Assembly: GCA_964187785.1 (NCBI GenBank)
Contig: OZ076409.1
Coordinates: 73,348,001-73,412,000 of the forward strand
DNA length: 64,000 bases
Reading direction: 5' to 3'
Origin: Amphiscolops sp. MND2022
Taxonomy: Eukaryota
Shown here: piece by piece, positions 1 through 23,522 of the stretch
How the letters are laid out: each line of letters starts with the position of its first letter
How positions within the stretch are numbered: the first letter of the stretch is position 1
Position numbers and translations under genes: made by a program
Notes under the pieces: generated by a model
What the model saw: the letters and a program-made list of their open reading frames with translations, nothing else
Database searches by the model: none
Told to the model about the DNA's origin: nothing

Positions 1-786
1 TGGTCTTCAGTCATTTTTCACACATTCGGAACTTAACTTAGAAAAATTTCAACCGAAAAACCCATTTTTTGTCAGGTCGAAAATTCAAAGTCAGCTTTTT
101 AAGCAAAATTATCAACTCTGACGTAACCAGTGGGGCCCATGATACTCAAAACAACGATTGGGGTTGGTACCAATGGCTCCAATAACATATGAGTCGCGAT
201 AAGACGTTATTTTGAGCACTATGTCTCAATTGAGTTAAAGATCTCGCCAACCAGTGATCACTGTGAAATGTAAATTCATTAAAAATTTACTCATTTTCGT
301 CAATCACCATGTGCACAGAGTGCGTAGGGTGAGTTCCAGCACTATAATGAGGTTTTTGAAGGCATCGGGTTGCTCAAGGGGTGGTATGAGACATTTTTTT
401 CCTATATACTACTGTATTTTCCAAAAGTTTTAGCCCATTATCTGGAAAAACTAACTTGACAAAATACTTTCAACAACTTTATTCAAAGGTTACAATGTAG
501 ATGAACCCAGTGGTTGATCAAAAATTTTCATCTCTTTCGGTTTCCGAAATAATTCCCTTCGAATGTGTTACATTTGTAGCAGGAAAAAAACCGAAACTAA
601 AAAATACGCGATTTTGCTGAGATAGAATCGCAATGGTTGCCCCTAAAATCTCTTTAAATACTTCTAACGCGACCTTATGGACCCAAAATGATTGAAAATG
701 CCATTCACAATGCTGACATGTGCTCTTTCGACGATCCTGGCTAGACAAGTTTTGCATATTTTTCAAGTACCTGTTAACTGAATTTT

Positions 787-834
787 GTGATAGCCTTTTA
801 AGTTGGCCTTGTGTCAACTTGGGAAGGCTATCAC
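787..834. repeat. Short-class internal inverted repeat (representative; also 3456-3498, 5579-5626, 47275-47324 and other short units)
   Basis: GTGATAGCCTTTTAAGTTG-gccttgtgt-CAACTTGGGAAGGCTATCAC. Confidence 0.85.
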
Positions 835-1161
835 ATCAAAAAACTTTCATCAAAAATACTTTTTGTTTATACAATAATGTAGTCGATAGTTATTTTCGTG
901 ATTTTACACTACCGTTAGTACCTTCCGCCAGGTCAGCTGACGATTGCATGCTGTCTTTGATAAAAACGTATGAACACCAAGAAAATTTTGTTGTATTTTT
1001 GTTGAAGAAAAGTATTAATAAATAATAAAAATATAATTCTAACCCTAAACAACTATAAATTTGCTTAACCGTTATTAGTCCTACCACCTATCATCAGCCT
1101 ATGCCATGGCCCGGTGATTAGTAGTACAACGCCCCATAAAGTAGCGACGCCCACAGTCTGT

Positions 1162-1181
1162 GGGCATGCCGAGGCATGCCC
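1162..1181. promoter_or_regulatory. Invariant GGCATGCC-GA-GGCATGCC element (candidate protein-binding site, p53-family RE-like); one per junction
   Basis: GGGCATGCCG AGGCATGCCC is 19/20 to RRRCWWGYYYRRRCWWGYYY; the core is present at all 22 junctions. Function is inferred. Confidence 0.5.
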
Positions 1182-1211
1182 TTCGACGACGTATGGCAAT
1201 TTTAGCGTAGC

Positions 1212-1239
1212 CCGCGGTCACTACCGCGGTAGCAGCTAG
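1212..1239 (+). terminator. Helitron-type 3' terminus: 18-nt hairpin plus CTAG (representative copy)
   Basis: CCGCGGT-cact-ACCGCGG ends 10 nt before the end of CTAG; covarying versions occur at most junctions. Refers to a rolling-circle replication terminator, not a transcription terminator. Confidence 0.7.
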
Positions 1240-4037
1240 GTGGCGGGGGGCTGTCCCCAATAGAATATAGTGAGGTAGGGTAGGGTTCCCTACCGAACAT
1301 TCAGTACTGAAAGACTCTTGTAGTATGAAAATTTTCCGATGTTTTGAGACCGATTTCGGATTCCACCCGTCAGAAGTTTATGATTTTTTGGCCCCCACCC
1401 AGATTTTGGGCACTGATCGCCCCCCACCAGGTTCCATACCCGTGGTTTCGTTGTGACGGGTACACGAGCGACCGTTAGGGGTCAATCAGGGGGTAAAATT
1501 TATAAAAGTGTGAATAACTTTTCCCCCCGTCGTTTTAGCAGGTCCGGTCACTAGTAAAGGTTTGTTGGGCATCATGCAGTGGGTACGGGGGGCCAAACAA
1601 AAATTTTCTATCATGCACCGTTACGGACTTGGCCCCCCGCCCAAACCGCTATTTTACCGGAAATTGCACTTTTTGAACGGGAAGGAGTCGTCTGAGCGCG
1701 GAGTCGTTTGGTAATGTTTTGTAGAGCATCTGAAGACGTGGTGGGGGACATGTAGTTTGCCGACCCCAGTTTACCCCTCGGACGGGAAATGACCGTTATG
1801 TTAGTTTTAAAATTGCCCCCCGTCAACTTTAACCGCTATTTCTGGTGTGAAGGAGTCGGAACAGCGTGTCGGGTGCTATATATCAAAAGTAGCTTTAAAC
1901 AAGGACCTATCAGAAACATGTGGTTTGGGACCCTTTGAACGGACCCGTTAGCCGGAAATAGGGTGACCGCCTCCTTTTTTTGGTGTTAAAACCGTAAAAC
2001 GGGCATTAAAGTGAAATTATCTCGTGAACGCGTGGAGCAATCGTGTCCATCACTCCTACAAGGTTTCATACCCATGACATGGTGTCTTCAGGGGGGCAAA
2101 CAGATCAGCGCTATCTATCACCGTTACGGACTTTGCCCCCCAGCCTAACCGCTATATTACCGGAAACTGCCCTTTTTGACCGGGAAGGAGTCGTCTGAGA
2201 GTGGAGTCGTTAAGTAATGTTTTGTAGAGCATCTAGAGACGTGTTGGGGGACATGTAGTTTGCCGACCCCTGTTTACCCCTCGGACGGGAAATGACCGTT
2301 ATGTTAGTTTTAAAATTGCCCCCCGTCAACTTTAACCGCTATTTCTGGTGTGAAGGAGTCGGAATAGCGTGTCGGGTGCTACATATCAAAAGTAGCTTTA
2401 AACAAGGACCTATCAGAAACATGTGGTTTGGGACCCTTGGAACGGACCCGTTAGCCGGAAATAGGGTGACCGCCCCCTTTTTCTGCGGTTAAAATTGTAA
2501 AACGGGCATTGAAGTGGAATTATCTTGGAAACGCGTGGAGCTATAGTGTCCTTCACTACTACAAGGTTTCATACTCAAGATACGGTGCCTTCAGGGGGGA
2601 AAACAGATTACCGCTATATATCACCGTTACGGACTTGGCCCCCCAGCCTAACCGCTATGTTACCGGAAATGTCATTTTTTGAGCCAAAAGGGTTAGTCCC
2701 AGCGTAGGAACGTCAGGTAACTTTATGTAGAACTCAATGAGACGAGTTGGGGGATATGGTTTCAGTCACCCCCCGTTGACCCGTTAGACCGGAAACGACC
2801 GTTATGTAGTGAAAAATGTAATTTTTATACTTTTTGAAGGCCATTTAGGGCAGGAAGTATCGGTAATATGTCTTTGGACAGTATACAATGAAAGTTTTGG
2901 TGTGAAACAAGCAATCTGAAATATCCGTTATTATGATTCGGAAGTCACACTAACAGCGAAAATGACCGTTATGTAGTGAAAATTTTTTTCACATTTTTTT
3001 TGCTTTCGATAGGTCCTTCAAGCCAAGAAGTAGCTGTATTAGGTCTTTGGCCACTTTATGATGATTGTGGTGTTGTGAGATGACCGTACGAACTTGACCT
3101 TTATAATGCCCCTGAAGTTGCTGCGGCACGAGAAATTTCAGAAAGTTTGTCTTTTCTGTGTTTTGTTGGAATAAACATTTAATTTCATTAAACCAATGTG
3201 CATTCAGGGTGTTTAGAAAGCTTCAAGAAAAGAATTTAATAGGAAACATGGCGGTGAGAAATAACAAATTGCCACGTAAATCCAACCACCGTTGGGGAAT
3301 AAATGTAATAAATTGTTTTGGAAGTGCCAATCGACGTGTATTTGGGGATCATAGCCACGGTATTGTCTATTCGTGTTTCTTTTTGAAGACTTTGAACATT
3401 TTCACTTTATCAGCTTGAGGTTTTAACTCTATATGCTTAATAACCGTTACAATATGATAGCCCTCAAGTTGACCTTGTGTCAACTTGAAAGGGCTATCCT
3501 TTCACAACTGCGCAGCAACAGTGTGATTGAGTGATTTAGTTATTATCCAAGGCCAATTTGAACTTCAACAAGATTTTAACCACAATATTTAAAACTATTC
3601 ATATGATTCTTTCAAAAGGGTAAATATTTAACTAATATTTGACAAAAAAACTCCAACCTTTAATTTGTGGACCGAATAGTAGGAAAACCATGTTTCTTAA
3701 CGTTGTTGGATGAAATTCAAAATGATGCTTTTAAAAGAATAACAATTCTTGACACTATATATTTTTTCTATTTTCCAATAAACTATTTTTCCAAAAGTCT
3801 ATTTTTCCAATAAACATTGTTGATTGATGCCCATTCATAGTGACTGGAAAGTTTTACCAACTGTGGTGTTTTTTTTAATCAGAGGTGAAACCGTTCCCTA
3901 CCGTCGCATAATGTAATTCAAGCCGACGCCCACATGCCAACATCAACGCCCACCGTCCGTAGGCATGCCGAGGCATGCCTTTCGACGACGTATGCCAAAT
4001 CACGCCCCTGCGAGGTCACTAAAGCGGTAGCGGCTAG
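1240..4037 (+). mobile_element. Divergent 2798-bp unit with its own body and ~503-bp internal repeats
   Basis: Body is not obviously alignable by eye to other units, but it shares the junction motifs, the TAGGGT-loop 5' hairpin and the internal GATAGCC..GGCTATC hairpin. Confidence 0.65.
1610..2810 (+). repeat. ~503-bp tandem repeat, about 2.4 copies
   Basis: ACCGTTACGGACTT at 1617, 2120 and 2623; GACCGTTATG at 1791, 2294 and 2797. Confidence 0.9.
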
Positions 4038-6025
4038 GTGGGCGGGGGTAATTCCCCAACAAAAATTACGGCCGGCGGGTTGGGTCCTGCCGGACGTTCA
4101 AATAGCGCGAAGCATCTAGTAGAAAACAAGGAGTCCTGAAACAGCGATTTTAAAATTGAACCGTTAGAATTTGGTTTTAGATTGCATGCGGCCCTAAAAT
4201 CCCCATACGAATGGAAGTTTCTGCTGGCGTTAAGCGATTGAAATAATATATAAAAAGTTATGGCCCATTTTTGGGTCACCGAGAAGGTCAAAATGAAGAA
4301 AATTTTAACTAAGTTGCTGATAACTCAAAATGTGTTAATTTTTGGACTTTGACTGTGAAACAAGCTTGGAACCTTCATTTCGTGGCTGTGGCATTGCACT
4401 GAACACAAAAGATGTAAAGTTTTCACATTTTTTGAAAATTCGACATTTTTGAATTTTTTTTCACTACTATCTGTACACTATATGTCAAAAACACCTCTGA
4501 AAAATTTTTTTATTTGCTTAAATTTAGAAACCTCGGTATCCATGGTTTCCGTCAGTACCTACTTGCTGCCAAACACTCAACAGTTTGCATCCAATGTGAA
4601 AATAAAATTTTTTTCGAGGTCTTAGGTGTTTCACAAAGATTTCTCAACTTAGTATCAATTTACAAATTGGTCATTTTGAACACATTATTTTCATCGAAAC
4701 GTGTCATATACCGCCCTAATGCTCACGAACGGGCCTATTGGCAACGTTGGAACCATTTATAGTAATAAAAAGTTTTAAAAAAATTTTTTCACCCCGTCTT
4801 CAGTCATTTTTCAGTCATTCGGAACTTAACTTAGAAAAATTTCAACCAAAAACCCATTTTTTGTCAAGTCGAAAATTCAAATTCAGCTTTTTAAGCAAAA
4901 TAAATAAATCTGACATAACCAGTGGGGCCCATGATACTCAAAACAACGATTGACACTGGTATCAATGGCTCCAATAACATATGAGTCGCGATAAGACGTT
5001 ATTTTGAGCAATACGTCTCAATTGAGGTAAAGATCTCGCAAGCCAGCGATCACTGTGAAATGTGATTTCATCAAAAATTTACTCTTTTTTGTCAATCACT
5101 ATGTGCACAGATTGCGTAGGGTGCGTTTCAGCACTATAATGAGGTTTTTGAAGGCATCGAGTTGCTCAAGGGGTGGTATCAGACATTTTTGTCCCATATA
5201 CTACTGTAGTTTCCAAAATTTTTACCCCAATATCTGGAAATACAAACTTGACAAAATACTTTCAACTACTTTATTCAAAGTTTACAATATAGATGAACAC
5301 TGTGGTTGATCAGAAACTTTCATCTCTTTCGTTTTCCGAAATATTTTCCTTCGCATGTGTTACATTCGTAGCAGAAAAAAAATCGAAACTGAAAAATACG
5401 CTATTTTGCTAATATAGAATCGCAATGATTGTGCCTAAAAACTCTTTAAACACTTCTAACGCAACCTTACGCACCCAAAATGATCGAAAATGCTATTCAC
5501 AATGGTGACATGTGCTCTTTCTACGATCCTGGCTGGAAAAGGTTTGCATATTTTTCAAGTACCTGTCAGCTAAATCTTGTGATAGCCTTTTCAGTTGGCC
5601 TTGTGTCAACTTGGGAAGGCTATCACATCAAAAAACCATCAACAAAAATATTTTTTGTTTATTGGATCTTACAGTCGATACTTTTTTTCGTGATTCTATA
5701 CTACCGTTAGTATATTTCATCAGGTCACCTTACGATTGCATTCAGTCTTTGATAAAAACCTATGAACTCAAAGTCACATTTATATATTTTTTTGCCAGAA
5801 AATAACATCAAAAATATCTAAAATATATAAAATAGAGTCTTTAACATTTTTACGTTTCAAGTTTCTGCCGTTATTAGGCCAATCAACGTCCTAGAGCCAC
5901 ATCCTGCCACATACTGTACAACGCCACATAGTGTTGCGACGTGCACAGTCTGTGGGCATGCCGAGGCATGCCCTTCGACGACGTATGCCGAATACCGCGG
6001 GCCTACGCCCGCGCTCCCCGGCTAG
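4038..6025 (+). mobile_element. Short-class unit, 1988 bp (head H1, tail b)
   Basis: Close copy of 14774-16763 and 47738-49724; ends CGCGGGC-ctac-GCCCGCG ctccccgg CTAG. Confidence 0.72.
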
Positions 6026-8015
6026 GTGGGCGGGGGTAATTCCCCAACAAAAAAATCGGCCGGCGGGTCGGGTCCTGCCGGCCGTCCAAAATCAAAATCC
6101 TCCTAGTAGAAAACGGCATGTCAAACGAGCTATTTTTTTATTTAACCATTAGAATTTCACCATTTTTTGCATGCGGCCCTGAAATGGCCATACGAGACGA
6201 AGTTCCTGCTGACGTTTTGCGATGTAAATGTTTTATAAAAAGTTATGGCCGATTTGTCATTCACCTAGAAGGGTAAAATGAGGAAAATTTTAACAAAGTC
6301 GCTGATAACTCAAAATGTGTTAATTTTTGGACTTTGACTGTGAAACAAGCTTGGAACCTTCATTTCGTGGCTGGGGCATTGGACTGAACACAAAAGATGT
6401 AAAGTTTTTACGTTTTTTGAAAATTCGACATTTTTGAAATTTTTTTCACTACTATCAGTACCCCATATGTCAAAAACACCTCAGAAAAAAATTTTTATTT
6501 GCTTTAAATTGGAAACCTTGGTATCCATGGTTTCTGTCGGAACCTACTCGCAGCCAAACACCCAACAGTTTGCATCCAATGTGAAAATAAAAATTTTTTC
6601 GGGGACATAAGCGTTTCACAAGGTTTTCATGTTTTAGTATTAAATTACATAGTGGTCATTTTAAACATAAAATTTTGGTCCAGGTATGTCGGATATAGTC
6701 TGAATGCTCACGAACGGTCCTACTGGCAACGTAGGAACCATTTATAGTAATGAAAAGTAATAAAAAAATTTTTTTAACCGGTCTTCAGTCATTTTTCAGA
6801 CATTCGGAACTTAACTTAGAAAATTTTCGAACCAAATACCCATTTTTTGTCAGGTCGAAAATTGAAATTCAGCTATTAAAGCAAAATTTTTTACTCTGAC
6901 GTAACCAGTGGGGTCCATGATACTCAAAAATACGATTGGGACTGGTACCAATGGCTCCTATATCATATGAGCCGCGATAAGACGTTATTTTGAGCAATAC
7001 GTCTCAATTGAGGTAAACATCTTGCAAGCCTGGGATCACAGTGAAATGTAATTTCATCAAAAAATTACTCATTTTCGTCAATCACTATGTGCAGAGAGTG
7101 GGTAGGGTGAGTTCCAACACTATAATGAGGTTTTTGAAGGCATAGGGTTGCTCAAGGGGTGGTATGAGTCATTACTTTCCTCTATACAACTGTATTTTCA
7201 AAAACTTTTAGCCCATTATCTGGAAAAATTAACTTGACAAAATACTTTCAATTAATTTATTCAAAGGTTACAATATAGATGAACACTGTGGTTGATCAGA
7301 AACTTTCATCTCTTTCGTTTTCCGAAATAACTCCTTTCAAATGTGTTACATTTGTAGCAGGAAAAAAAACTGAAACTAAAAAATACGCGATTTTGCTGAG
7401 ATAGAATCGCAATGGTTGCGCCTAAAATCTCTTTAAATACTTCTAACGCGACCTTACGGACCCAAAATGATTGAAAATGCCATTCACAATGCTGACATCT
7501 GCTCTTTCTACGATCCTGGCTGGACAAGTTTTGCATTTTTTTCAAGTACCTGTTAACTGAACATTGTGATAGCCTTTCAAGTTGGCCTTGTGTCAACTTG
7601 GGAAGGCTGTCACATCAAAAAACTGTCAACAAAAATACTCTTTGTTTATAGGATAATGCTGTCGATGCTTCACTTCGTGATTCGATCATGTCGTGAGTTC
7701 CTTCCATCAGGTCAGCTAACATTTGGATTCAGTGTTGGATAAGAACCTATGATTTTCATGACAATTTTAGTTCTTTTTTGTCAACAAAAAGTACAAATAA
7801 ATGATATAAAACATATTTGTAACCTTTAGGAAGTTTAACTTTACCTTTATTTACCGTTGCCATCGCCACCCACCCCCTACGACCTCGCAGTGTCCTCATT
7901 ACAACGCCACATAGTGTAGCGACGCCCACAGTCTGTGGGCATGCCGAGGCATGCCCTTCGACGACGTATGCCAAATATAGCGTTAGCCCGCGGTCACTAC
8001 CGCGGTAGCAGCTAG
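6026..8015 (+). mobile_element. Short-class unit, 1990 bp (head H2, tail c)
   Basis: Body and tail match 41773-43762, which has a different head. Confidence 0.72.
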
Positions 8016-10249
8016 GTGGGCGGGGGTAATTCCCCAACTAAAAATTCGGCCGGCGGGTCGGGTCCTGCCGGCCGTCCAAAATCAAAATCCTACTAGTAGA
8101 AAACGGCATGTCAAACGAGCTATTTTTTTATTTAACCGTTAGAATTTGGGTTTAGATTGCATGCGGCCATGAAATGGCCATACGAATTGAAGTTCCTGCT
8201 GACGTTTTGCGATTGAAACACTTTATAAAAAGTTATGGCCAATTTGTCAGTCACCTAGAAGGGCAAAATGAGGAAAATTTTAACAAAGTCGCTGATATCT
8301 CAAAATGTGTTAATTTTTGGACTTTGACTGTGAAACAAGCTTGGAACCTTCATTTCGTGGCTGTGGCATTGCACTGAACACAAAAGCTGTAAAGTTTTCA
8401 CATTTTTTGAAAATTCGACATTTTTGAAATTTCTTTCACTACCATCAGTACCCCATATGTCAAAAACACCTCAGAAAAAAATTTTTATTTGCTTTAAATT
8501 GGAAACCTTGGTATCCATGGTTTCTGTCGGAACCTACTCGCAGCCAAACACCCAACAGTTTGCATCCAATGTGAAATAAAAAATTTTTTCGAGGTCATAA
8601 GCGTTTCACAAGGTTTTCATGATTTAGTATTAAATTACATAGTGGTCATTTTAAACATAAAATTTTGGTCCAGGCATGTCGGATATAGTCTGAATGCTCA
8701 CGAACGGTCCTACTGGCAACGTAGGAACCATTTATAGTAATAAAAAGTATTTAAAAATTTTTTTCACCCGGTCTTCAGTCATTTTTCAGACATTCGGAAC
8801 TTAACTTAGAAAATTTTCGAACCAAATACCCATTTTTTGTCAGGTCGAAAATTGAAATTCAGCTAATAAAGCAAAATTTTTTACTCTGACGTAACCAGTG
8901 GGGTCCATGATACTCAAAAATACGATTGGGACTGGTACCAATGGCTCCTATATCATATGAGCCGCGATAAGATGTTATTTCGAGCAATACGTCTCAATTG
9001 AGGTAAACATCTCGCAAGCCTGGGATCACAGTGAATTGTAATTTTATCAAAATTTTACTCATTTTTGTCAATCACTATGTGCACAGAGTGCGTAGGGGGA
9101 GTTGTAGCACTATAATGAGGTTTTTGAAGGCATCGGGTTGCTCAAGGTGTTGTATGAGACATTTTTTTCCTATATACTACTGTATTTTCCAAAACTTTTA
9201 GCCCATTATCTGCAAAAACTAACTTGACAAAATACTTTGAGTTACTCTACTCAAAGCTTAGAACATAGATGAACACTGTGGTTGATCAGAAACTATTTAC
9301 TATTTTGTTTTTAGAAAAAACTGCCTTGCATGTGTTACACTAGTGGCAGGAAAAATACCAGTAGCTCCAAAAATCACAAATTTGGACGGACAGACTTGCA
9401 ATGATGCAAAGCAAAAACGTTTCAACAACTTCTGACGCCACTTCTTTTACCCAAGAGGTTCGAAAACGCCATTAACAAGGCTGACATTCGCAATAAATAA
9501 GATCGAGGTCCATTTACTAACACTTAGGTTTCAAATTTGTTTCTGAGAAACCCATTTTTGTCAGGTCGCAATTTCAAATTTAATTTGGGAAGCAAAATTT
9601 TTCACTCTGAAGCAAACCGCTGGGCCCAAATTACTCAAAAACAACAAAAAGACTATCACCATATGCTCTAATAACATATGAGATGCGACAGTATGCTTTT
9701 AACACAAAAACTCTCATCCGAAGTAAACATGTTGAAAGCCTTGAATCACCGTGAGAAGTGATTTCATCAAAAAATATTTCTTTTTCGTCAATCACTATAT
9801 ACACAAAACCCGTTGTGTTAGTTTCAGCCGTGAAATGAGGTTCTACCGTAATATGGGTTGCTCAAGGTGTTGTATAAGAGAAAATCGTCCTCTTTTCTAC
9901 TAACTTCTTCAAATATTTCGACCCTTTGTCACACGAAGTTAATATTCAAAATCTCTTTGAATTGTTTCTTTAGGTTGGGATGAAGTGGTAGAACAATAAC
10001 TTTGATCGAAGAATGCTAGTATTGGTGTTTGGACCATGTTTGGATGAACAAATCGCAAAATCATGAAAAATTTGTTTCTTTTTTTGGTTATTTTGGCAGT
10101 ACTAAAAATGTTAGCTGACAAATAATTTTTTCGATAGCACCATTGGATTCCGCTCAAAAAGTTGGTTATATGACATGTGTAATAACGCCGTATCTTTTCA
10201 ATTTAAATATATTTAAAAAGCCAACTTTTTTGACCAAAATCCTAAAAAT

Positions 10250-11590
10250 CATACCATTTCCTAAAAAATTTCAAATGCACCCCATTTGACGTATAACAAT
10301 AGCACAGAAAACTATCATATACCGATCAACTCTACTCTCATTGTGGAATAATTAGCATTTTGTTTTGAACGAATTTTGATGGATATTAAAAAATTTTGAA
10401 CCCTCCAAATATGGGCCAAAATTACACGAAAAAATTGACCTTAAAATTTTAAAATGTCAAAAAATCATCAAAACTACAGCTTCTTGGGGTTCTATCAACT
10501 CCACGTGGTCCACAGAGTACGCTAAAACAGGTTTTACCCGTTTTTGAGCAATATGTGAAAAAGCCGACATTTTTGGGAAAGAAAAACATCCCATTTCCTA
10601 AAAAAATTCAATTGCACGCCATTTGCCGTATGAGAATAGCACGGAAAACTATCACATACCGATCAACTCTACTTTTATTGTAGATGATTAAAAATTAGTT
10701 TAAAACAAATTTTGACGGATATTAAAAAATTTTAAACCCTTAAAAAATGGGCCAAAATTACACGAAAAAATTGACCTTAAAATTTTAAAATGTCACAAAA
10801 TCATCAAAACCACAGCTTCTTGGGGTTCTATCAACTCCACGTGGTCCACAGAGTACGCTAAAACAGGTTTTACCCGTTTTTGAGCAATATGTGAAAAAGC
10901 CGACATTTTTGGGGAAGAAAAAATAGGCATTTCCTAAAAAAATCAAATGCACGCCATTTGCCGTATAAGAATAGCACAGAAAACTATCATATACCGATCA
11001 ACTCTACTCCCATTGTAGATTATTAGAATTTTATTTTGAATGATTTTTGATGGTTATTAAAAAATTTTGAGCCCCCCAAAAGCGGGCCAAAATTACACGA
11101 AAAAATTGACCTTAAAATTTTAAAATGTCAAATAATCATCGAAACCACAGCTTCTTGGGGTTCTATCCACTCCACATGGCCCACAGAGTATGCCAAACCA
11201 GGTTTTGCGCGTTTTTGAGCAATTTTTGAGAAAGCCGAGTTTTTTGGGGAAGAAAAACATAACATTTCCTAATAAAATTCAAATGCACGCCATTTGGCGT
11301 ATGACAATAGCACAGAAAACTATCACATACTAATCAACTCTACTCTCTTTGTAGATCACCAGAGTTTTGCTTAGAATAAATTTTGATGAATATTTGTAAA
11401 TTTTAAACCCTCCTAATATGGGCCAAAATCACACGGAAAAATTGACCCTAAGGTATTAAAATGTCAGAAATTCATCAAAACCACAGCTTCTTGGGGTTCT
11501 ATCATTTCTATATGACTTTCAGAGTATACCAAACAAGGTATTAACATTGGGCGATAATTAAAAACACCAATTTTATTTTAGAAGAAAACC
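10250..11590 (+). repeat. 4 x ~336-bp tandem repeat
   Basis: AGCACRGAAAACTATCA at 10301, 10638, 10973 and 11309. Confidence 0.9.
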
Positions 11591-11804
11591 ATAATAAGTT
11601 CAATATAAGAAGTGAATCATTCCATATATATACCCTGTCTTATATTTTAAATTAGCGATAATATATATACTTGATGTTTTTTGAAAGTGAGCTTCATAAG
11701 TGGTTGAGATGTGATAATACGTAAATGGATTCCAAGTTTCATCGAAATGTCAAAGGAATACGTCCAATCAACTTCAATCTTAACAATTAGATAACAAAAA
11801 ACCT

Positions 11805-11846
11805 AAGTACATTCCATCTCCCCATCGGGGAGATGAGAATGTACTT
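11805..11846. repeat. Long-class internal inverted repeat (representative; present in all 7 long units, e.g. 22556-22596)
   Basis: AAGTACATTC-CATCTCCCC-atc-GGGGAGATG-a-GAATGTACTT. Confidence 0.85.
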
Positions 11847-12764
11847 TTCAAAAACCAAAAACTTAGATGTTTTTTTTGTAACACTTACTGTAACTGCTGA
11901 AATGATGAAAGAATATTTATGCTTCTAATAACTCCATGATTTTTTGCCTCAGCATTTTTTTTGCAGAACAAAACCATCAGACATATTTTTCGCAGTTAAG
12001 TTCGATCGTATTACCCAGTGAACAAAGGTATGGAAGGATGTTTACAAGTTGTTTCAAAACTTTCCCGCCTTCCAAAATAATGAAACGTCTACACAACCAA
12101 GATAGCAAATGAATGAATGCGGAATGCATCTTATTAGATAAGATAAATAACGTGTAGAACTTACCTTTATCTGAAGTTGACGTTGATTTATGATCTTTAG
12201 AGGATAGTTTGATTTTTGACCATAATAGTGGGAAACTAATTATTATATGAATGATGGCGTGGAAAGCGTTCAGAAATTGTAGTATTTTGGATTCGAGCAT
12301 GTATGCGTGGGTTCCTTTGGTGGCGTTAGCTTAGTGTACATGATGGAAGTTTTCGATCTGTTATGATTAATTTTACTCACGAGTCTTTGTTTTTCCTATT
12401 TTTTTGCCATTAAGTACATTCATTCTATCCCCTTTTCTGAGAATGTACGTTTGTCAAATGACAGTCATCCAAATTTTGCATTCCCGAAGAGTTTAAATAC
12501 ATAACACGTGTTTAGCGTTTCCAAATCACAACCGAGTAACATTCTATTTTTTTTTCTCAAAATTGATAATGGTTTTGATTTTGGTGTCTTCTACTTTCAT
12601 CATCCATCATAACAACCACCTTACCATGTCTCTCGCTTGTCTTCATTTTACAACGCCACATAGTGTAGCGACGCCCACAGTCTGTGGGCATGCCGAGGCA
12701 TGCCCTTCGACGACGTATGCCAAATTTAGCGTTAGCCCGCGGTCACTACCGCGGTAGCAGCTAG

Positions 12765-14773
12765 GTGGGCGGGGAAATTTCACCCCGTTTGTATTCGGCC
12801 GACGGGTAGGGTCCTGGCGGCCGACGATCCGCCTTAAGCTAGCGGTATGTAGCAGAAATTGCAAAAAAAAGACCTAAAATTTAATCTAACCATTAGAATT
12901 TGCTCAAAATTTGCATGCGGCCCTCAAATCCTATTGCAAGACGAAGTTCCTGCTGACGCTAAGCGTTCTATAAACTTTATAAAAAGTTATGGCCAATTTT
13001 TTGTTCAAATTTTCAACATTTTTGGGAAATTTCTAATTTTTCACTTAATATCTCAAAATGTGTTAATTTTTGGACTTTGACTGTGAAACAAGCTTGGAAC
13101 CTTCATTTCGTGGCTGTGGCATTGCACTGAACACAAAAGATGTAAAGTTTTTACATTTTTCGAAAATTCGAGATTTTTGAAATTTTTCTCACTACTATCA
13201 GTACCCCATATGTCAAAAACACATCAGAAAAAAATTTTTATTTGCTTTAAATTGGAAACCTTGGTATCCATGGTTACTGTCGGAACCTACTCGCAGCCAA
13301 ACACCCAACAGTTTGCATCCAATGTGAAAATAAAAATTTTTTTTGGGTCATAAGCGTTTCACATGGATTTTACAACTTAGTTTTAATTTACAAGTTGGTC
13401 ATTTTGAACACAATATTTTCATCGAGGCTTGTCGGCTATAGCCTTAATGTTCTCGAACGGTCCTACTGGCAACGTAGGAACCATTTATAGCAATAGAAAG
13501 TTTAAAAAAAATATTTTCACCTCGTCTTCAGTCATTTTTCAGTCATTCGGAACTTAACTTAGAAAAATTTCGACCAAAATACCCATTTTTTGTCAGGTCG
13601 AAAAATGAAATTAAGATTTTCAAGCAAAATTATTAACTCTGACGTAACCCATGGGGCCTATGATACTCAAAACAACGATTGACACTGGTATCAATGGCTC
13701 CAATAACATATGAGTCGCGATAAGACGTTATTTTGAGCAATACGTCCCAATTGAGGTAAAGATCTCGCAAGCCAGCGATCACTGTGAAATGTGATTTCAT
13801 CAAAAATTTACTCATTTTTGTCAATCACTATGTGCACAGAATGCGTAGGATGAGTTTCAGCACTATAATGAGGTTTTTGATGTAATCGGCCTGCTCAAGG
13901 GTGTGTATGAGACATTTTTTTCCCATATAGTACTATATTTTCCAAAATTTTTAGCCCATTATCTCAAAAACCTAACTTTGCAAAATGCTTTCAAATACTT
14001 TATTCTAAGGTTAGAATATGAATGAACACTGTGGTTGATCAGAACCTCTCAATTTTTTTTTGTTTTCCGAAAAAATACCTTCGCATGGGTTACATTTATG
14101 GCAGAAGAGAAAGCAGAAGATAAAAAATACGCTATTTTGCTAAGATAGAAACGCAATGATTGAGCCTAAATACCCTTTAAATACTTCTAACGCAACCTTA
14201 TGGACCCAATATGATTGGAAATACCGTTCACAGTCCTCACATGTACTCTTTCTACAATCCAGACTGCACATTTTCTGAAAATTTTACATGTAGCTTTAAA
14301 CTGAATCTTGTGATAGCCTTTTAAGTTGACCTTGTGTCAACTTGGGAAGGCTATCACCACCAAAAACTATAAACAAAACTACCATTTGTTAATCGAATTT
14401 TGCTGTCGATGCCTATTTTCGTGATTGTATACTACCGTTAGTATCTTCCATCATGTCAGCTGACGATAGCATGCAGAGTTTGAAAAAATACCTATGAACT
14501 CGAAGACATTTTTGTTTATTATTTGGTAAATAATTTTATTTCTAAATAATAAATAACAACTTCAAACCTTTGAATACTATCACATTTGTTTTCTCTTCCG
14601 TTATCAGTCTTCCGTCACCCATGATCTGAGCCTATGTCATGACCCTGTGATTTGTATAACAACGCCACATACCAACATCAACGCCCACCGTCTGTGGGCA
14701 TGCCGAGGCATGCCCTTCGACGACGTATGCCAAATTTAGCGTTGCCCGCACTCTGGAGTGCGGTAGCAGCTAG
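12765..14773 (+). mobile_element. Short-class unit, 2009 bp (unique head H3, tail e)
   Basis: Bounded by junctions; ends CCGCACTC-tg-GAGTGCGG tagcag CTAG. Confidence 0.72.
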
Positions 14774-16763
14774 GTGGGCGGGGGTAATTCCCCAACAAAA
14801 ATTACGGCCGGCGGGTTGGGTCCTGCCGGACGTTCAAATAGCGCGAAGCATCTAGTAGAAAACAAGGAGTCCTGAAACAGCGATTTTAAAATTGAACCGT
14901 TAGAATTTGGTTTTAGATTGCATGCGGCCCTAAAATCCCCATACGAATGGAAGTTCCTGCTGGCGTTAAGCGATTGAAATAATATATAAAAAGTTATGGC
15001 CCATTTTTGGGTCACCGAGAAGGTCAAAATGAAGAAAATTTTAACTAAGTTGCTGATAACTCAAAATGTGTTAATTTTTGGACTTTGACTGTGAAACAAG
15101 CTTGGAACCTTCATTTCGTGGCTGTGGCATTGCACTGAACACAAAAGATGTAAAGTTTTCACATTTTTTGAAAATTCGACATTTTTGAATTTTTTTTCAC
15201 TACTATCAGACAACTATATGTCAAAAACACCTCTGAAAAATTTTTTTATTTGCCTAAATTTAGAAACCTTGGTATCCATGGTTTCCGTCAGTACCTACTC
15301 GCTGCCAAACACTCAACAGTTTGCATCCAATGTGAAAATAAATTTTTTTTCGAGGTCTTAGGTGTTTCACAAGGATTTCTCAACTTAGTATCAATTTACA
15401 AATTGGTCATTTTGAACACATTATTTTCATCGAAGCGTGTCATATACCGCCCTAATGCTCACGAACGGGCCTACTGGCAACGTTGGAACCATTTATAGAA
15501 ATGTAAAGTTATAAAAAAAAATTTTCACCCGGTCTTCAGTCATTTTTCAGTCATTCGGAACTTAACTTAGAAAAATTTCGACCAAAATATCCATTTTTTG
15601 TGAGGTCGAAAAATCAAATTCAGATTTTTGAGCAAAATTATTAACTCTGAAGTAACCCATGGGGCCCATGATACTCAAAACAACGATTGACACTGATATC
15701 AATGGCTCCAATAACATATGAGTCGCGATAAGACGTTATTTTGAGCATTACGTCTCAATTGAGGTAAAGATCTCGCAAGCCAGCGATCACTGTGAAATGT
15801 GATTTCATCAAAAATTTACTCTTTTTTGTCAATCACTATGTGCACAGAATGCGTAGGGTGCGTTTCAGCACTATAATGAGGTTTTTGAAGGCATCGAGTT
15901 GCTCAAGGGGTGGTATGAGACATTTTTGTCCCATATACTACTGTATTTTCCAAAATTTTTAGCCCAATATCTGCAAATATAAACTTGACAAAATACTTTC
16001 AACTACTTTATTCAAAGGTTACAATATAGATGAACACTGTGGTTGATCAGAAACTTTCATCTCTTTCGTTTTCCGAAATATTTCCCTTCGCATGTGTAAC
16101 ATTCGTAGCAGAAAAAAAAATCGAAACTGAAAAATACGCAATTTTGCTAATATAGAATCGCAATGATTGTGCCTAAAAACTCTTTAAACACTTCTAACGC
16201 AACCTTACGCACCCAAAATGATCAAAAATGTTATTCACAATGGTGACATGTGCTCTTTCTACGATCCTGGCGGGACAAGGTTTGCATATTTTTCAAGTAC
16301 CTGTCAGCTAAATCTTGTGATAGCCTTTTCAGTTGGCCTTGTGTCAACTTGGGAAGGCTATCACATCAAAAAAACATCAACAAAAATAATTTTTGTTTGT
16401 TGGATCTTACAGTCGATACTTTTTTTCGTGATTCTATACTACCGTTAGTATATTTCATCAGGTCACCTTACGATTGCATTCAGTCTTTGATAAAAACCTA
16501 TGAACTCAAAGTCACATTTATATATTTTTTTGCCAGAAAATAACATCAAAAATATCTAAAATATATAAAATAGAGTCTTTAACATTTTTACGTTTCAAGT
16601 TTCTGCCGTTATTAGGCCAATCAACGTCCTAGAGCCACATCCTGCCACATACTGTACAACGCCACATAGTGTTGCGACGTGCACAGTCTGTGGGCATGCC
16701 GAGGCATGCCCTTCGACGACGTATGCCGAATACCGCGGGCCTACGCCCGCGCTCCCCGGCTAG
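14774..16763 (+). mobile_element. Short-class unit, 1990 bp (H1, tail b)
   Basis: Close copy of 4038-6025 with different neighbours. Confidence 0.72.
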
Positions 16764-18760
16764 GTGGGCGGGGGTAATTCCCCAACAAAAATTACGGCCG
16801 GCGGGTTGGGTCCTGCCGGACGTCAAATAGCAAAGAATATCTAGTAGGAAACGGCGACACAGAATCGCGATTTTTAAATCTAACCACAATTTTTTGGACT
16901 TGGAGTGCATGCGGCCCTGAAATGCCCATACGAATCGAAGTTCCTGCTGACATTAAGCGATTGAAATAATATATAAAAAGTTATGGCCCATTTTTCACTC
17001 ACAAAGAAGGGTAAAATGAGGAAATTTTTAACAAAGTCGCTGATAACTCAAAATGTGTTAATTTTTGGACATTGACTGTGAAACAAGCTCGGAACCTTCA
17101 TTTCGTGGCTGTGGCATTGCACTGAACACAAAAGATGTAAAGTTTTTACATTTTTTGAAAATTCGAAATTTTTGAAATTTTTTTCACTACTATCAGTACC
17201 CCATATGTCAAAAACGCCTCAGAAAAAATTTTTTATTTGATTTAAATTGGAAACCTTGGTATCCATGGTTTCTGTCGGATCCTACTCGCAGTCAAACACC
17301 CAACAGTTTGCATCCAATGTGGAAATAAAAATTTTTTCGGGGTCATAAGCGTTTCACAAGGATTTCTCAACTTAGTTTCAATTTACAAATTGGTCACATT
17401 GAACACATTATTTTCATCGAAGCGCGTCAGATACCGCCCTAAAGCTCACGAACGGTCCTACTGGCAACGTAGCAACCATTTATAGTAATATAAAAGATTA
17501 GAAAAAAAATTTTCACCCGGTCTTCAGTCATTTTTCAGTCATTCGGAACTTAACTTAGAAAAATTTCGACCAAAATACCCATTTTTTGTCAGGTCGAAAA
17601 ATCAAATTCAGATTTTTAAGCAAAATTATTAACTCTGACGTAACTCATGGGGCCCATGATACTCAAAACAACGATTGACACTGGTATCAATGGCTCCAAT
17701 AACATATGAGTTGCGATAAGACGTTATTTTGAACAATACGTCTCAATTGAGGTAAAGATCTCGCAAGCCAGCGATCACTGTGAAATGTGATTTCATAAAA
17801 AATTTACTCATTTTTGTCAATCACTAAGTGCACAGAATGCGTAGGGTAAGTTCCAGCACTATAATGAGGTTTTTGAAGGCATCGAGTTGCTCAAGGGGTG
17901 GTATGAGACATTTTTTTCCTATATACTACTGTGTTTTCCAAAACTTTTAGCCCATTATCTGGAGAAACTAACTTGACAAAATACTTGCAATAACTTTATT
18001 TAAAGGTTACAATGTAGATGAACCCTGTGGTTGATCAGAAACTCTCATCTCATTCGTTTTCCTGAATAATTCCCTTCGAATGTGTTACATTTGTAGCAGA
18101 AAAAAAACCGAACCAAAAAAAATACGCGATTTTGCTGAGATAGAATCGCAATGGTTACGCCTAAAATCTCTTTAAATACTTCTAACGCGACCTTACGGAC
18201 CCAAAAAGATTGAAAATGCCATTCACAATGCTGACATGTGCTCTTTCTACGATCCTGGCTTGACAAGTTTTGCATATTATTCAAGTACCTGTTAACTGAA
18301 TTTTGTGATAGCCTTTCAAGTTGGCCTTGTGTCAACTTGGGAAGGCTATCACATCAAAAAACTTTCATCAAAAATACTTTTCGTTTAAACGATATTGTAT
18401 TCGATATTTATTTTTGTGATTTTACACTACCGCTAGTACCTTCCGCCAGGTCAGCTGACGATTGCAAGCAGCCTTTGTTAAAAACCCATGAACACCAATA
18501 TTTTTTTCTCATACTTTTGTTGAAGAAAAGTACAAATAAACAATAAAAATATAATTTTAACCTTTAACAACACTAATTTGTCTTTATCGTTATCAGTCCT
18601 ACCACCCATACCCATCATCATCCTATGCCATGGCCCGGTGATTAGTACAACGCCACATAGTGTAGCGACGCCCACAGTCTGTGGGCATGCCGAGGCATGC
18701 CCTTCGACGACGTATGCCAATTTTAGCGTAGCCCGCGGTCACTACCGCGGTAGCAGCTAG
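16764..18760 (+). mobile_element. Short-class unit, 1997 bp (head H4, tail a)
   Basis: Bounded by junctions; tail resembles that of 1-1239. Confidence 0.72.
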
Positions 18761-21700
18761 GTGGGCGGGGGTAATTCCCCAACAAAAAAATCGGCCGGCG
18801 GGTCGGGTCCTGCCGGCCGTCCAAAATCAAAATCCTCCTAGTAGAAAACGGCATGTCAAACGAGCTATTTTTTTATTTAACCATTAGAATTTCACCATTT
18901 TTTGCATGCGGCCCTGAAATGGCCATACGAGACGAAGTTCCTGCTGACGTTTTGCGATGTAAATGTTTTATAAAAAGTTATGGCCGATTTGTCATTCACC
19001 TAGAAGGGTAAAATGAGGAAAATTTTAACAAAGTCGCTGATAACTCAAAATGTGTTAATTTTTGGACTTTGACTGTGAAACAAGCTTGGAACCTTCATTT
19101 CGTGGCTGTGGCATTGCACTGAACGCAAAAGATGTAAAGTTTTTACATTTTTTGAAAATTTGACATTTTTGAAATTTCTTTCACTACTATCAGTATCATA
19201 TATGTCAAAAACACCTCAGAAAAAAAATTTTATTTGCTTTAACTTGGAAACCTTGGTATCCATGGTTTCTGTCGGAACCTACTCGCAACCAAACAACCAA
19301 CAGTTTGCATCCAATGTGAAAATAAAAACTTTTTCTGGGTCATAAGCGTTTCACAAGGATTTCTCAACTTAGTATTAATTTACAAAATGGTCATTTTGAA
19401 CACAATATTTTCATCGAGGCTTGTCGGCTATAGCCTTAATGTTCTAGAACGGTCCCACTGGCAACGTAGGAACCATTTATAGTAATAGAAAGTTTAAAAA
19501 AATATATTTTCACCCTGTCTTCAGTCATTTTTCAGTCATTCGGAACTTAACTTAGAAAAATTTCGACCAAAATACCCATTTTTTGACAGATCGAAAATTC
19601 AAATTCAACTTTTTAAGCAAAATTATTAACTCTGACGTAACCAGTGGGGCTCATGATACTCAAAAACACGATTGGGACTGGTACCAATGGCTCCAATATC
19701 ATATGAGCCGCGATAAGACGTTATTTTGAGCAATACGTCTCAATTGAGGGAAACATCTCGCAAGCCTGGGATCACAGTTAAAAGTGATTTCGTCAAAAAT
19801 TTACTCTTTTTCGTCTATCACTATGTACACAGAGTGCGTAGGGTGAGTTTCAGCACTATAATGCGGTTTTTGAAGGAATCGGTCTGCTCAAGGGGTGGTA
19901 TGAGACATTTTTTTTGCATGTAGTACTATATTTCCTAAAACTTTTAGCCCATTATCTCGAAAAGCTCACTTCGCAAATTACTTTCAGTTACTCTATTCGA
20001 AGCTTAGAATATATATGAACACTGTGGTTGATCAGAAACTCTTGACTATTTTGTTTTTGGAAAAAAACTGCCTTGCATGTGTTACATTAGTGGCAGGAAA
20101 AATACCAGTAGCTCCAAAAATCACAATTTTGGACGGACAGACCTGCAATGATGCAAAGCAAAAACGTTTCAACAACTTCTGGCGCCACTTTTTTTACCCA
20201 AGAGGTTCGAAATTACTATTAACAATGCTGACATTCGCTATAAATAAGATCGAGGACAATTTACTAACACTTAGGTTATACATTTATATCTGAGAAACCA
20301 TTCTTTGTCAGGTCGCAATTTTAAATTTAGTTTGGGAAGCAATACTTTTCACTCTGAAGCAAACCGTTGGGCCCAAATTACTCAAAAACTACAAAAAGAC
20401 TGTCACCAAATGCCCTAATAGCATATGAGATTCGACCGTATGTTTTTAACACAAAAACTCTCATCCGAAGTAAACATGTTGAAAGCCTTGAATCACCGTG
20501 AGAAATGATTTCATCAAAAATATCCCTTTTTCGTCAATCTTTATCTACACAGAACACGTTGTGTCATTTTCAGCCGTGAAATGAGCTTCTACCGTAATAT
20601 GGGTTGCTCAAGGTGTTGTATAAGACAAAAACTTCCTCTTTTCTACTATCTTCTTCAAATATTTCAACCCTTTGTCACAAGAAGTTAATATTCAAAATCT
20701 CTTTGAAATGTTTCTTTAGGTTGGTGTGAAGTGTTAGAACAATAATTAAGATCGAAGAATGATAGTATTGGTGTTTGGACCATATCCGGATGAACAAATT
20801 GCAAAATCATGAAAAATTTCTTACCATTTTTGGTCATTTTGTCAGTACTAAAAATGTTAGCTGAAAAAGAATTTTTTTGATGGCACCATTGGATTCCTCT
20901 CAAAAAGTTAGCTATATGAACTGTGTAATAACCCCGTATCTTTTCAATTTAAATAATTTTAAAAAGCAAACTTTTTTGACTAAAATCCTAAAAATCATAC
21001 CATTTCCTAAAAAATTTCAAATGCCCCCCATTCGACGTATAAGAATAGCACAGAAAACTATCACATACCGATCGACTCTACTTCCATTGTAGATTACCAG
21101 AATTTTGTTTAGAACAATTTTTGACGGATGCAAAAAAATTTAAACCCTCCAAAAAAGGGCCAAAATTACACGAAAAAATTGACCTTAAAATTTTAAAATG
21201 TCGAAAAATCATCAAAACCACAGCTTCTTGGGGTTCTATCAACTCCACGTGGTCCACAGAGTATGTTAAAACAAGTTTTACCCGTATTTGAGCAATATGT
21301 GAAAAAGCCGACTTTTTTGGGAATGAAAAACATACCATTTCCTAAAAAATTTCAAACGCACCCCATTTGACGTATAAGAATAGCACAGAAAACTATCACA
21401 TACCGATCGACTCTACTTCCATTGTAGGTTACCAGAATCTTGTTTAGAACATTTGTTGACGGATGCAAAAAAAAATAAAACCCTCCAAAAATGGGCCAAA
21501 ATTACACGAAAAAATTGACCTTAAATTTTTAAAATGTCAAAAAATCATCAAAACCACAGCTTCTTGGGGTTCTATCAACTCCACGTGGTCCACAGAGTAT
21601 GCTAAAACAGGTTTTACCTGTTTCTGAGCTATATGTGAAAAAACCGACATTTTGGGGAAGAAAAACATACCATTTCCTAAAAAATTTCAAATGCACGCCA

Positions 21701-23522
21701 TTTGCCGTATGAGAATAGCACAGAAAACTATCACATACCGATCAACTCTACTTCTATTGTAGATTATCAGATTTTTGTTTAGAACAAATTTTTATGGATA
21801 TAAAAAATTTTTAAACCCTCCAAAAATGAGCCAAAATAACACGAAAAAATGGACCCTAAATTTTTAAAATGTCAAAAAATTATCCAAACCACAGCTTCTT
21901 GGGGTTCTATCAGCTCCACGTGGTCCACAGAGTATGCTAAAACAGGTTTTGCCCGTTTTTGAGCAGTATATGAAAAAGCCGACATTTTTGGGGAAGAAAA
22001 ACATACCATTTCCTAAATAATTTCAAATGCAGGCAATTTGCCGTATGAGAGTAGCACAGAAAACTATCACACACCGATCAACTCTACTTCTTTTGTAGAT
22101 TATCAGAATTATGTTTAGAGTAAAGTTTTATGGATATGAAAAATTTTTATACCCTCCAAAAATGGGCCAAAATGACACGAAAAAATTGACCTCAAATTTT
22201 TAAAATGTCAAAAAATTATCCAAACCACAGCGTCTTGGCGTTCTATCAACTCCAAATGACCTTCAGAGTATACCAAACCAGGTATTGCCAATCTTTTGAG
22301 CAATATTTAAAAACACCGACTATTTGGCAAGAACACCATAATATGTTCCATATAAGAAGTGAATCATTCCACATATATACCCGGTCTAATATTTTCAAAT
22401 TAGCGATAACATTAATACATGATGTTTTTTGAAAGTGAGCTTCATAAGAGGTTGAGATGTAATAATACGTAAATGGACCCTAAGTTTCATTGAAATCTCA
22501 ATGGAATACGTCCAATCAACTTCAATCCTAACTATTATATAACAAGAAACACTTGAGTACATTCCATCTCCCCATCGGGGGAGATGAGAATGTACTTTTC
22601 AAAAGCCAAAATTTTCGAATTTTAAATCTTTTGTAACATTGTATGTAACTGTTGAAACGATGAACGAATAAAAATGCTTCTAGTACCTTCATCAATTTTT
22701 GCTTCAGCTCCTATTTCTGCAGAACAAAACCAAAAGACACACTTACAGCAGTTAAGTTCGATTGTATAACTCAGTGAATAAAGGTATGACTGAGGAAGTT
22801 CACAAGTTGTTTCAAAAGTTTCCGGCCTTCCAAAATCATGAAACGTCCACACAACCAAGATAGCAAGTGAAAGAATGCTGAATGCACCTTATTAGATGAG
22901 ATAAATAACGTGTGGAACTTGCCATTATCTTAAGATGACGTTGATTTATGATCTTTTAAGGATAGTTCGATATGTGACCACAATAGTGGAAAACTTATTA
23001 CTATTTGAAGAACACCGTGGAAAGCGTTCAGAAAGGACAGTATATTTGTTTCGAGCATGCATGCGTGTGTTCCTTTGGTGACGTTAGCTTAGTGTACATG
23101 ACGGAGGTATTCGAGAGATTATGATAGAGTTTACTCACAAGTCTTTGTTTTTTAAAACTTTCTATGCCGTTGAGTACATTCGTAAGGTACATCCATCCCC
23201 TTCTCTGGGAATGTACGTTTGCCAAATGACTGTCATCCAAAATTCGTAATCCGGACGAGTTTAACTACATAAACATGTGATGAGCGTTTTCTATTCAAAA
23301 CCGAATAACTTTTTTTTTCTCGAAAATGATGATGGTTTTGATTTTGATGTCTTCTACTTTTATCATCATGCAAACGACCTTACCATGTCTCTCTTCTGTC
23401 GTCATTTGTACAACGCCACATAGCGTTCCGACGCCCACCGTCTGTGGGCATGCCGAGGCATGCCCTTCGACGACGTATGCCAAATGAGCCATACCCGCAC
23501 TCTGGAGTGCGGTAGCGGCTAG
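18761..23522 (+). mobile_element. Long-class unit, 4762 bp (H2, tail f)
   Basis: 3' ~3.7 kb is nearly identical to that of 30274-35037. Confidence 0.72.
20997..22340 (+). repeat. 4 x ~336-bp tandem repeat
   Basis: Same monomer as 10250-11590; ends approximate. Confidence 0.85.

Follow-up and report, generated by a model that had tools for sequence, protein, structure and literature searches.

Helitrons and their relatives are the described elements closest to the array presented here. Two classes have been defined (PMC11417382), namely HLE1, with a 5' TC, a 3' CTRR preceded by a hairpin at about 11 nt, and insertion between A and T that duplicates no target, and HLE2, with a pair of inverted repeats of 11-17 nt and terminal hairpins. 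A hairpin before CTAG is described for Helitron 3' ends (PMC4067079), and precise end-joined circles have been shown for Helraiser (PMC5876387). In mite HINEs, subterminal repeats that are palindromes lie 38-60 bp from the 3' end, with a stem-loop after them (PMC4067079); in FoHeli1/2 of Fusarium, a repeat able to form a hairpin lies 38-51 bp from the end (PMC5148889). Replitrons are HUH elements of algae, plants and stramenopiles that lack TC/CTRR ends and have short direct terminal repeats (PMC10288648). Tandem mosaics of transposons in centromeres have been ascribed to recombination (bioRxiv 10.64898/2026.09.17.752431).

Transposons with p53 sites are already known as well, mostly as passengers that rewire host genes. 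Such response elements occur in human LTR, Alu and L1 sequences, and those of the zebrafish non-autonomous DNA transposon EnSpm-N6_DR are active in reporter assays (PMC3485254). Caenorhabditis Helitrons carry working heat-shock elements whose binding was shown by ChIP (PMC6927752). The p53 consensus is made of two RRRCWWGYYY half-sites (PMC7498329); the natural p21 site departs from it at two bases (PMC4323202 Table 3), and the C. elegans protein CEP-1 showed no activity in yeast on canonical sites with GC flanks (PMC4323202). Listings of the open-access literature name no Helitron-p53 case, no p53 site at the end of a rolling-circle element or in an array of them, and no element with the ends described below; terminal sequences of known families given in supplements could alter the family assignment. 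The available portions of PMC10288648, PMC12376486 and bioRxiv 10.1101/2025.11.06.686955 offer no closer match.

The window, meaning the whole 64-kb stretch of DNA that was analysed, is occupied by a head-to-tail array that extends past both of its ends, and neither an end of the array nor a solitary copy falls within it. Table 1 presents an overview of the array and its features. When units are defined by cutting at CTAG, thirteen measure 1973-2009 bp and seven 4426-4768 bp, while a single one, U1, measures 2798 bp. With gaps counted, likeness ranges from 67 to 99% among the short units and from 72 to 98% among the long ones, with a median of 82% in both. The unit interiors are mosaics produced by ordinary recombination, and the likeness of adjacent units does not exceed that of random pairs (p 0.25). 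A concatemer of one circle was dropped as an explanation because neighbours are not alike. Long units contain a 336-bp tandem repeat in 2.8-4 copies (10245-11504 and six other long units), and U1, with a repeat of its own measuring about 500 bp (1608-2810), matches the others only over the terminal ~90 bp, in a single long hairpin and at the junction.

Coding capacity is absent from the window, where the longest frame spans 129 amino acids. Among 50 frames of at least 50 amino acids from representative units (U1, U3 and U4 of the 21), none reached the Pfam cut-off and three gave matches below it. A stop-to-stop frame of 77 amino acids in U1 (2992-3222, minus strand) scored 24.4 bits against Flu_PB2_6th (cut-off 25, E 2.4e-5), which is probably a chance match. 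Rfam returned no matches on positions 1-20,000 at E up to 1, nor on the whole window and an outside relative at gathering scores, and ARAGORN detected no tRNA. The 64-kb window holds no autonomous Rep-helicase partner, and neither poly(A) nor 5' truncation is seen in the 21 units.

Table 1. Positions of the features discussed, in window coordinates except where the metagenome contig L005 is named.
Feature	Position	Strand	Remarks
Array	1240..62877	+	21 whole units in one orientation; partial units at both window edges
Unit U1	1240..4037	+	2798 bp; interior unrelated to other units
Example short unit	6026..8015	+	one of 13 (1973-2009 bp)
Example long unit	8016..12764	+	one of 7; first ~1340 bp in common with short units
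Long hairpin, 2-kb units	786..835	+	~22-bp stem; ~450 nt before junction
Long hairpin of the same type in U1	3455-3498		2.8-kb unit
Long hairpin of long units, non-homologous	11805..11846		19-bp stem; ~960 nt before junction; 7 of 7 long units
Long hairpin in L005	566-606 (contig)		covarying version of the long-unit type
Two ACGCC(C)AC-like direct repeats	1129..1154	+	~19 bp apart, upstream of block; partly conserved; also in L005
Whole invariant subterminal block	1156..1191	+	GTC/GAC widens dyad to 32 bp (1156-1187); TTCGACGACG at 1182-1191
p53-consensus-like 20-mer	1162..1181	+	one of 22 copies; decamers with CATG cores and no spacer between them; perfect 9+2+9 inverted repeat
GC-rich hairpin, 18 nt	1212..1229	+	ends 10 nt before CTAG end; sequence varies by unit type
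Junction 9-mer GCTAG/GTGG	1235..1243	+	invariant; unit boundary falls within
Two head hairpins of next unit	1247..1294	+	second with conserved G-rich loop and covarying stem
Head hairpins, common type	6033-6045 and 6057-6084	+	

Each junction is preceded by a copy of a 29-nt pattern that occurs 22 times in the window, always on the plus strand and with no mismatch, and that had no match in any of 100 shuffled sequences. From the 3' edge of the 20-mer within it to the end of CTAG the distance is 52-59 nt. An alignment of 20 junction-centred segments, from which the first and last junctions (J1 and J22) were excluded, places the longest invariant run in an 18-nt core of the motif, with runners-up of 10, 9 and 9 nt, and gives a mean identity of 0.993 across the 29-column motif window against a median of 0.837. 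The second-longest invariant run is TTCGACGACG, which falls beyond the p53 site. Two copies, at 3961-3980 and 47664-47683, differ solely by an A at position 1 and a T at position 20. These measurements bear out the claims of an earlier sequence-only reading, namely that the motif is unchanged at every junction, that it is the most conserved sequence, that it sits about 55 nt upstream of the CTAG end, and that the two divergent units stay inside the consensus. CTAG stands at each junction of the window (22 of 22), but L005, the outside relative, reads CGAG. The 22 copies are one repeated element and not 22 independent events. At the substitution rate of the unit bodies, invariance would be expected with a probability of about 7e-7 for the 18 invariant motif positions and about 4e-4 for TTCGACGACG. 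The motif is real and is under strong constraint.

The likeness of the 20-mer to a p53-family site is close. In all 22 copies, 19 of 20 positions fit two RRRCWWGYYY half-sites with zero spacer and CATG in both cores, and the sole mismatch is a G at position 10 that is fixed throughout. The natural p21 site, with two such mismatches, is further from the consensus (PMC4323202). A sequence with at most one mismatch is expected by chance at 1.5e-6 per position. The figure rises to about 3e-4 given a random 9+2+9 inverted repeat, and to about 1e-2 when twin 8-bp palindromes at a distance of 10 bp are presupposed. As for variation, the CWWG cores are invariant, and the same is true of 10 of the 12 degenerate positions and of 10 nt beyond the site. 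At the transition rate of the bodies, four to five of the 12 purine/pyrimidine positions would be expected to vary; the count is only two (p ~0.10). Binding of the 20-mer by a p53-family protein is best described as plausible. A reading in terms of p53 only is weakened because the invariance spans degenerate and off-consensus positions and continues through TTCGACGACG, and because the dyad widens to 32 bp. The undepleted CpG and the periodic AA/TT of the window might suit a nematode, as one possible host among others, and in that case the inactivity of CEP-1 on canonical sites would also count against p53.

The same block can be viewed as a dyad. All 11 pairs of the extended dyad are intact in each of 16 aligned sequences, and ten of them never vary, which makes those ten uninformative about pairing. 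The only variation within the 20-mer is a paired change from G-C to A-T in three sequences, which probably descend from one event; such a change would be as fitting for a dyad or hairpin signal as for a p53 site. Since the other hairpins of the element drift in sequence and the 20-mer does not, the dyad may suit a protein that reads specific bases. Of the proposals made earlier for this motif, the p53 reading stands insofar as the consensus match is real and rare by chance, and falls short in that the conserved block exceeds the p53 site; a site for Rep is still a candidate, though as a dyad and not as a plain iteron.

The unit boundary can be placed within nine base pairs. Linkage among regions upstream of the junction is appreciable (Mantel rho 0.26-0.50) and among downstream regions it is strong (0.92), but across the 9-mer GCTAGGTGG it vanishes (Mantel rho 0.06, p 0.25). 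Across the 21 units, the head of a unit correlates with its own tail 1.8-4.5 kb away (rho 0.65, p 0.0003; 0.77 in the 13 short units) and not with the adjacent tail (rho -0.06, p 0.64). Twelve junction pairs are near-identical in the 3' hairpin region before the junction, and one of the twelve also has the region after it in common. Some pairs that are identical upstream diverge 4 nt past CTAG, and some that are identical downstream differ 6 nt before the CTAG end. Because linkage breaks at the 9-mer and neighbours are unlike, whole units of different families have been joined within 9 bp. Moreover, the longer conserved block just upstream would be a better target for ordinary crossing-over and yet is unused, from which we infer that the units were joined by a site-specific route. 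Two other boundaries were considered and dropped: a second CTAG about 90 nt downstream is missing from several unit types, and a dip in linkage at +780 to +820 coincides with a low-variation stretch whose flanking blocks are still correlated. Every unit cut after CTAG starts with GT and ends with AG (21 of 21), so that the junction AG/GT resembles a splice donor; no pyrimidine tract precedes the junction AG.

Toward the tail of a unit the order of features is a long hairpin, a pair of short direct repeats, then the invariant block, a GC-rich hairpin of variable sequence and CTAG. At 18 of 22 junctions the GC-rich hairpin is more stable than at least 198 of 200 base shuffles, whereas J2, J14, J20, J21 and L005 have a weak one. 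At the head, two hairpins are present in all 13 variants folded. Pairing in the second head stem reaches 91%, and four of its seven pairs show changes on both sides, which places the stem above all 500 shuffles and all slid controls; the test used eight sequences, one per head type (of 23), and its statistic ignores relatedness. At one position of the stem a G-T pair is found in six of the eight. Unit heads also hold runs of G, mostly paired with runs of C (1240-1294 and all 22 junctions; 884-940 in L005), and an alternation between quadruplex and hairpin at the heads is conceivable. The long hairpin, with a stem of 19-22 bp, lies about 300-970 nt before the junction in two versions of unrelated sequence, each with stem-preserving changes. 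Searched by pattern, one version is found in 14 of 15 among the short units, U1 and the partial units, and the other in all seven long units and L005. Four plus-strand copies have folding z values of -5.5 to -8.7, and the long hairpins have no match in Rfam.

Searches beyond the window yielded one true relative, L005, a metagenome contig of 1172 bp that was one of seven metagenome matches. The other six were judged to be chance matches, with no likeness to the units beyond the searched motif among the BLAST matches listed. L005 keeps the A...T form of the 20-mer, TTCGACGACG, a spacing of 52 nt, both downstream hairpins and the long upstream hairpin. Its flanks are largely different, with 73-78% likeness to U1 near the junction, and in this one short contig no strong hairpin stands before CGAG. 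The motif block is thus retained in U1 and in L005, whose interiors are unrelated to those of the common units. Three sequencing runs (shares 0.06-0.11), aligned at 80% likeness, gave short contig pieces, and one contig from one of the runs bridges a junction (5916-6096). Viral contigs gave no match in one scan, and two single matches from further scans were judged by their flanks to be chance; two scans of prokaryote genomes gave none in either, and phage records none.

How the units compare with known elements depends on which end is considered. Canonical Helitrons (HLE1) have a hairpin about 10-12 nt before CTAG (PMC4067079, PMC5876387, PMC11417382); in the units such a hairpin is strong at 18 of 22 junctions and weak at four, as it is in L005. 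Like Helitrons, the units are non-coding with internal tandem repeats. Precise head-to-tail junctions and the lack of terminal inverted repeats are likewise features of canonical Helitrons, their tandem arrays and Helraiser. The 3' CTRR of HLE1 is present as CTAG at all 22 junctions. In contrast, the junction continues with GTGG instead of TC: none of the 21 units has a 5' TC, all start with GT after the CTAG cut, and the junction 9-mer contains no TC. As far as Helitron arrays are described in these sources, this array also differs in that its neighbours belong to different families rather than to a one-copy concatemer, and in that no RepHel gene was found. The 5' hairpins are a trait of HLE2 and Helentron elements, for which self-insertion is reported too, and HINE, DINE-1 and FoHeli likewise place a subterminal palindrome 40-60 bp before the 3' end, ahead of a stem-loop (PMC4067079, PMC5148889). 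Unlike the described HLE2 and Helentron elements, however, the units have a palindrome with no 5' partner (no subTIR pair of at least 11 nt) and ends that are not T-rich. When the first 30 nt were compared with the last 160 nt, the best reverse-complement match was 5-7 nt in all 21 units, below the 11-17 nt of HLE2, and an inverted repeat between the 5' and 3' ends was dropped as a candidate since it reached 7 nt at most and was not kept among units. With neither a 5' TC nor an inverted repeat pair, the units are filed in neither HLE1 nor HLE2; their ends appear Helitron-like at the 3' side, and family membership is not assigned. Replitrons resemble them in starting without TC, and their Rep has no counterpart found here for comparison (PMC10288648).

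The explanation that we favor, tentatively and at rather less than an even chance, is that the array is a mosaic of rolling-circle-type non-autonomous elements with a p53-family-bound block that serves as a junction-dependent switch. In such a scheme the units would be non-autonomous mobile elements, most likely of a rolling-circle (HUH, Helitron-like) type, that join at or insert into their own 3'-5' junction and so build up a mosaic head-to-tail array. The 20-mer would form the center of a subterminal control block of about 36 bp and may owe its retention to binding by a p53-family tetramer, probably with a second factor occupying the flanks. Because circles and tandems bring the subterminal site just upstream of the 5' end, such a switch is possible: the site belongs to a unit's tail, the next head starts 52-59 nt further on, and the site would face the 5' end of the element only in those forms. 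The outcome could be a switch that responds to the germline or to damage. Of all this, the array, its boundary, the conservation and the consensus match are observed, while the kind of mobilizing enzyme, p53-family binding and any switch are inferred. A broader version, which we consider unlikely, is that an undescribed self-targeting group of eukaryotic elements with unrelated interiors and one terminal block insert exactly into each other's junctions, build cassette-like arrays in this way, and are switched on by germline or DNA-damage signaling, through the p53-family site, in circles and tandems only.

Several other explanations start from the same array. The block may be the element's own signal, either a palindromic site or a single-strand hairpin, for a missing Rep or recombinase, with the p53 likeness a coincidence; this is a serious possibility, if on balance somewhat doubtful. 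It would agree with the intact dyad and its one paired change, with a conservation that disregards the limits of a p53 site, with the other covarying hairpins kept by the units, and with the subterminal palindromes or hairpins at a like distance in mite HINEs (PMC4067079) and FoHeli1/2 (PMC5148889). The HINE and FoHeli repeats, however, have a partner at the 5' end in the descriptions available, while the units have none. In addition, ten of the eleven pairs are uninformative and the three sequences with the paired change probably represent one event. A palindrome of such shape would fit the p53 consensus in roughly 3 of 10,000 cases, or in 1 of 100 where twin palindromes are taken as given, and the steadiness of the block beside drifting hairpins again suits base-specific reading by a protein. 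A p53-family factor and a protein of the element are not mutually exclusive at the block, and the choice between them is at present about evenly balanced. Alternatively, the array may be an ordinary macrosatellite in which recent homogenization alone conserved a functionless motif. The missing coding capacity (129 amino acids at most, none of 50 frames at the Pfam cut-off) and the recombination mosaics of the unit bodies are what such a satellite would show, but the block is common to units with unrelated interiors and to an outside contig, it is invariant where the flanks differ widely (the 18 positions at p ~7e-7), and linkage breaks at a 9-bp site and not in the longer conserved block. The macrosatellite reading is therefore disfavored and seems very unlikely.

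Arrays with a promoter in the tail of each element are known from the telomeric elements of Drosophila. By that precedent the units could move through RNA, the tail of one acting, with or without p53, as promoter for the next, and the junction being a start or processing site at which copies reinsert. The fixed spacing of block and junction (52-59 nt; 52 in L005) across a variable intervening sequence, the two head hairpins in 13 of 13 variants, the G-T pair in six of eight and the GT...AG bounds in 21 of 21 units would all be in keeping with this. On the other hand, the 21 units have neither poly(A) nor 5' truncation, Rfam offers no ribozyme, intron or SL RNA match, no pyrimidine tract precedes AG, and G-T pairs improve the folding of any G-rich strand. 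The RNA route is consequently a weaker rival to the rolling-circle-type reading and is improbable. Among specific RNA candidates, an SL RNA gene was dropped for want of a conserved U-rich stretch between the hairpins, and HDV-like and hammerhead ribozymes and group II introns were dropped by eye and with Rfam. Finally, the host might keep the array as a p53-family sink or signaling platform, a sink having also been proposed in the sequence-only reading. Although 22 near-optimal candidate sites in 64 kb and an array that runs past both window ends might speak for such a role, one site per 2-5 kb is sparse beside the roughly 100,000 motif matches given per mammalian genome (PMC7498329), and a sink would have no need of precise junctions and hairpins. 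The proposal of a sink is thus left unsupported, and the whole idea appears very unlikely.

Returning to the rolling-circle-type reading with a p53-family-bound block, its meaning depends on how the site is placed. A consensus p53 site inside a non-autonomous element has a parallel in EnSpm-N6_DR, although the p53-site transposons described in that source are dispersed and act on host genes (PMC3485254). In the array, no other sequence of the element is as conserved as the p53-like site, which keeps a fixed place beside the joining site across unrelated families. Caenorhabditis Helitrons are likewise rolling-circle elements with sites for a host stress factor, but the factor is a different one with binding shown by ChIP (PMC6927752), and here each unit has one putative site. 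If the site is bound, the element would depend on, or be policed through, a p53-family protein. Proteins of the p53 family have been proposed as germline watchers of mobile DNA, and binding, if true, would bear on that idea. If p53 plays no part, a mosaic in which whole units meet within 9 bp and have ends that match neither class of Helitron would still point to a site-specific mobilizing enzyme, and the array is more unusual than the sequence-only reading conveyed.

A few minor observations concern the units and the window as a whole. A single p53-type half-site, AAACAAGCTY, with no partner half-site, lies in the unit body at about +317 of 18 units (for example 4358-4367). The heptamer ACCGTTA, which resembles a Myb-type site, occurs 31 times on the plus strand of the window and never on the minus strand. 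Over the whole window, the CpG observed/expected ratio is 0.97 and AA/TT dinucleotides are periodic at 10 bp.
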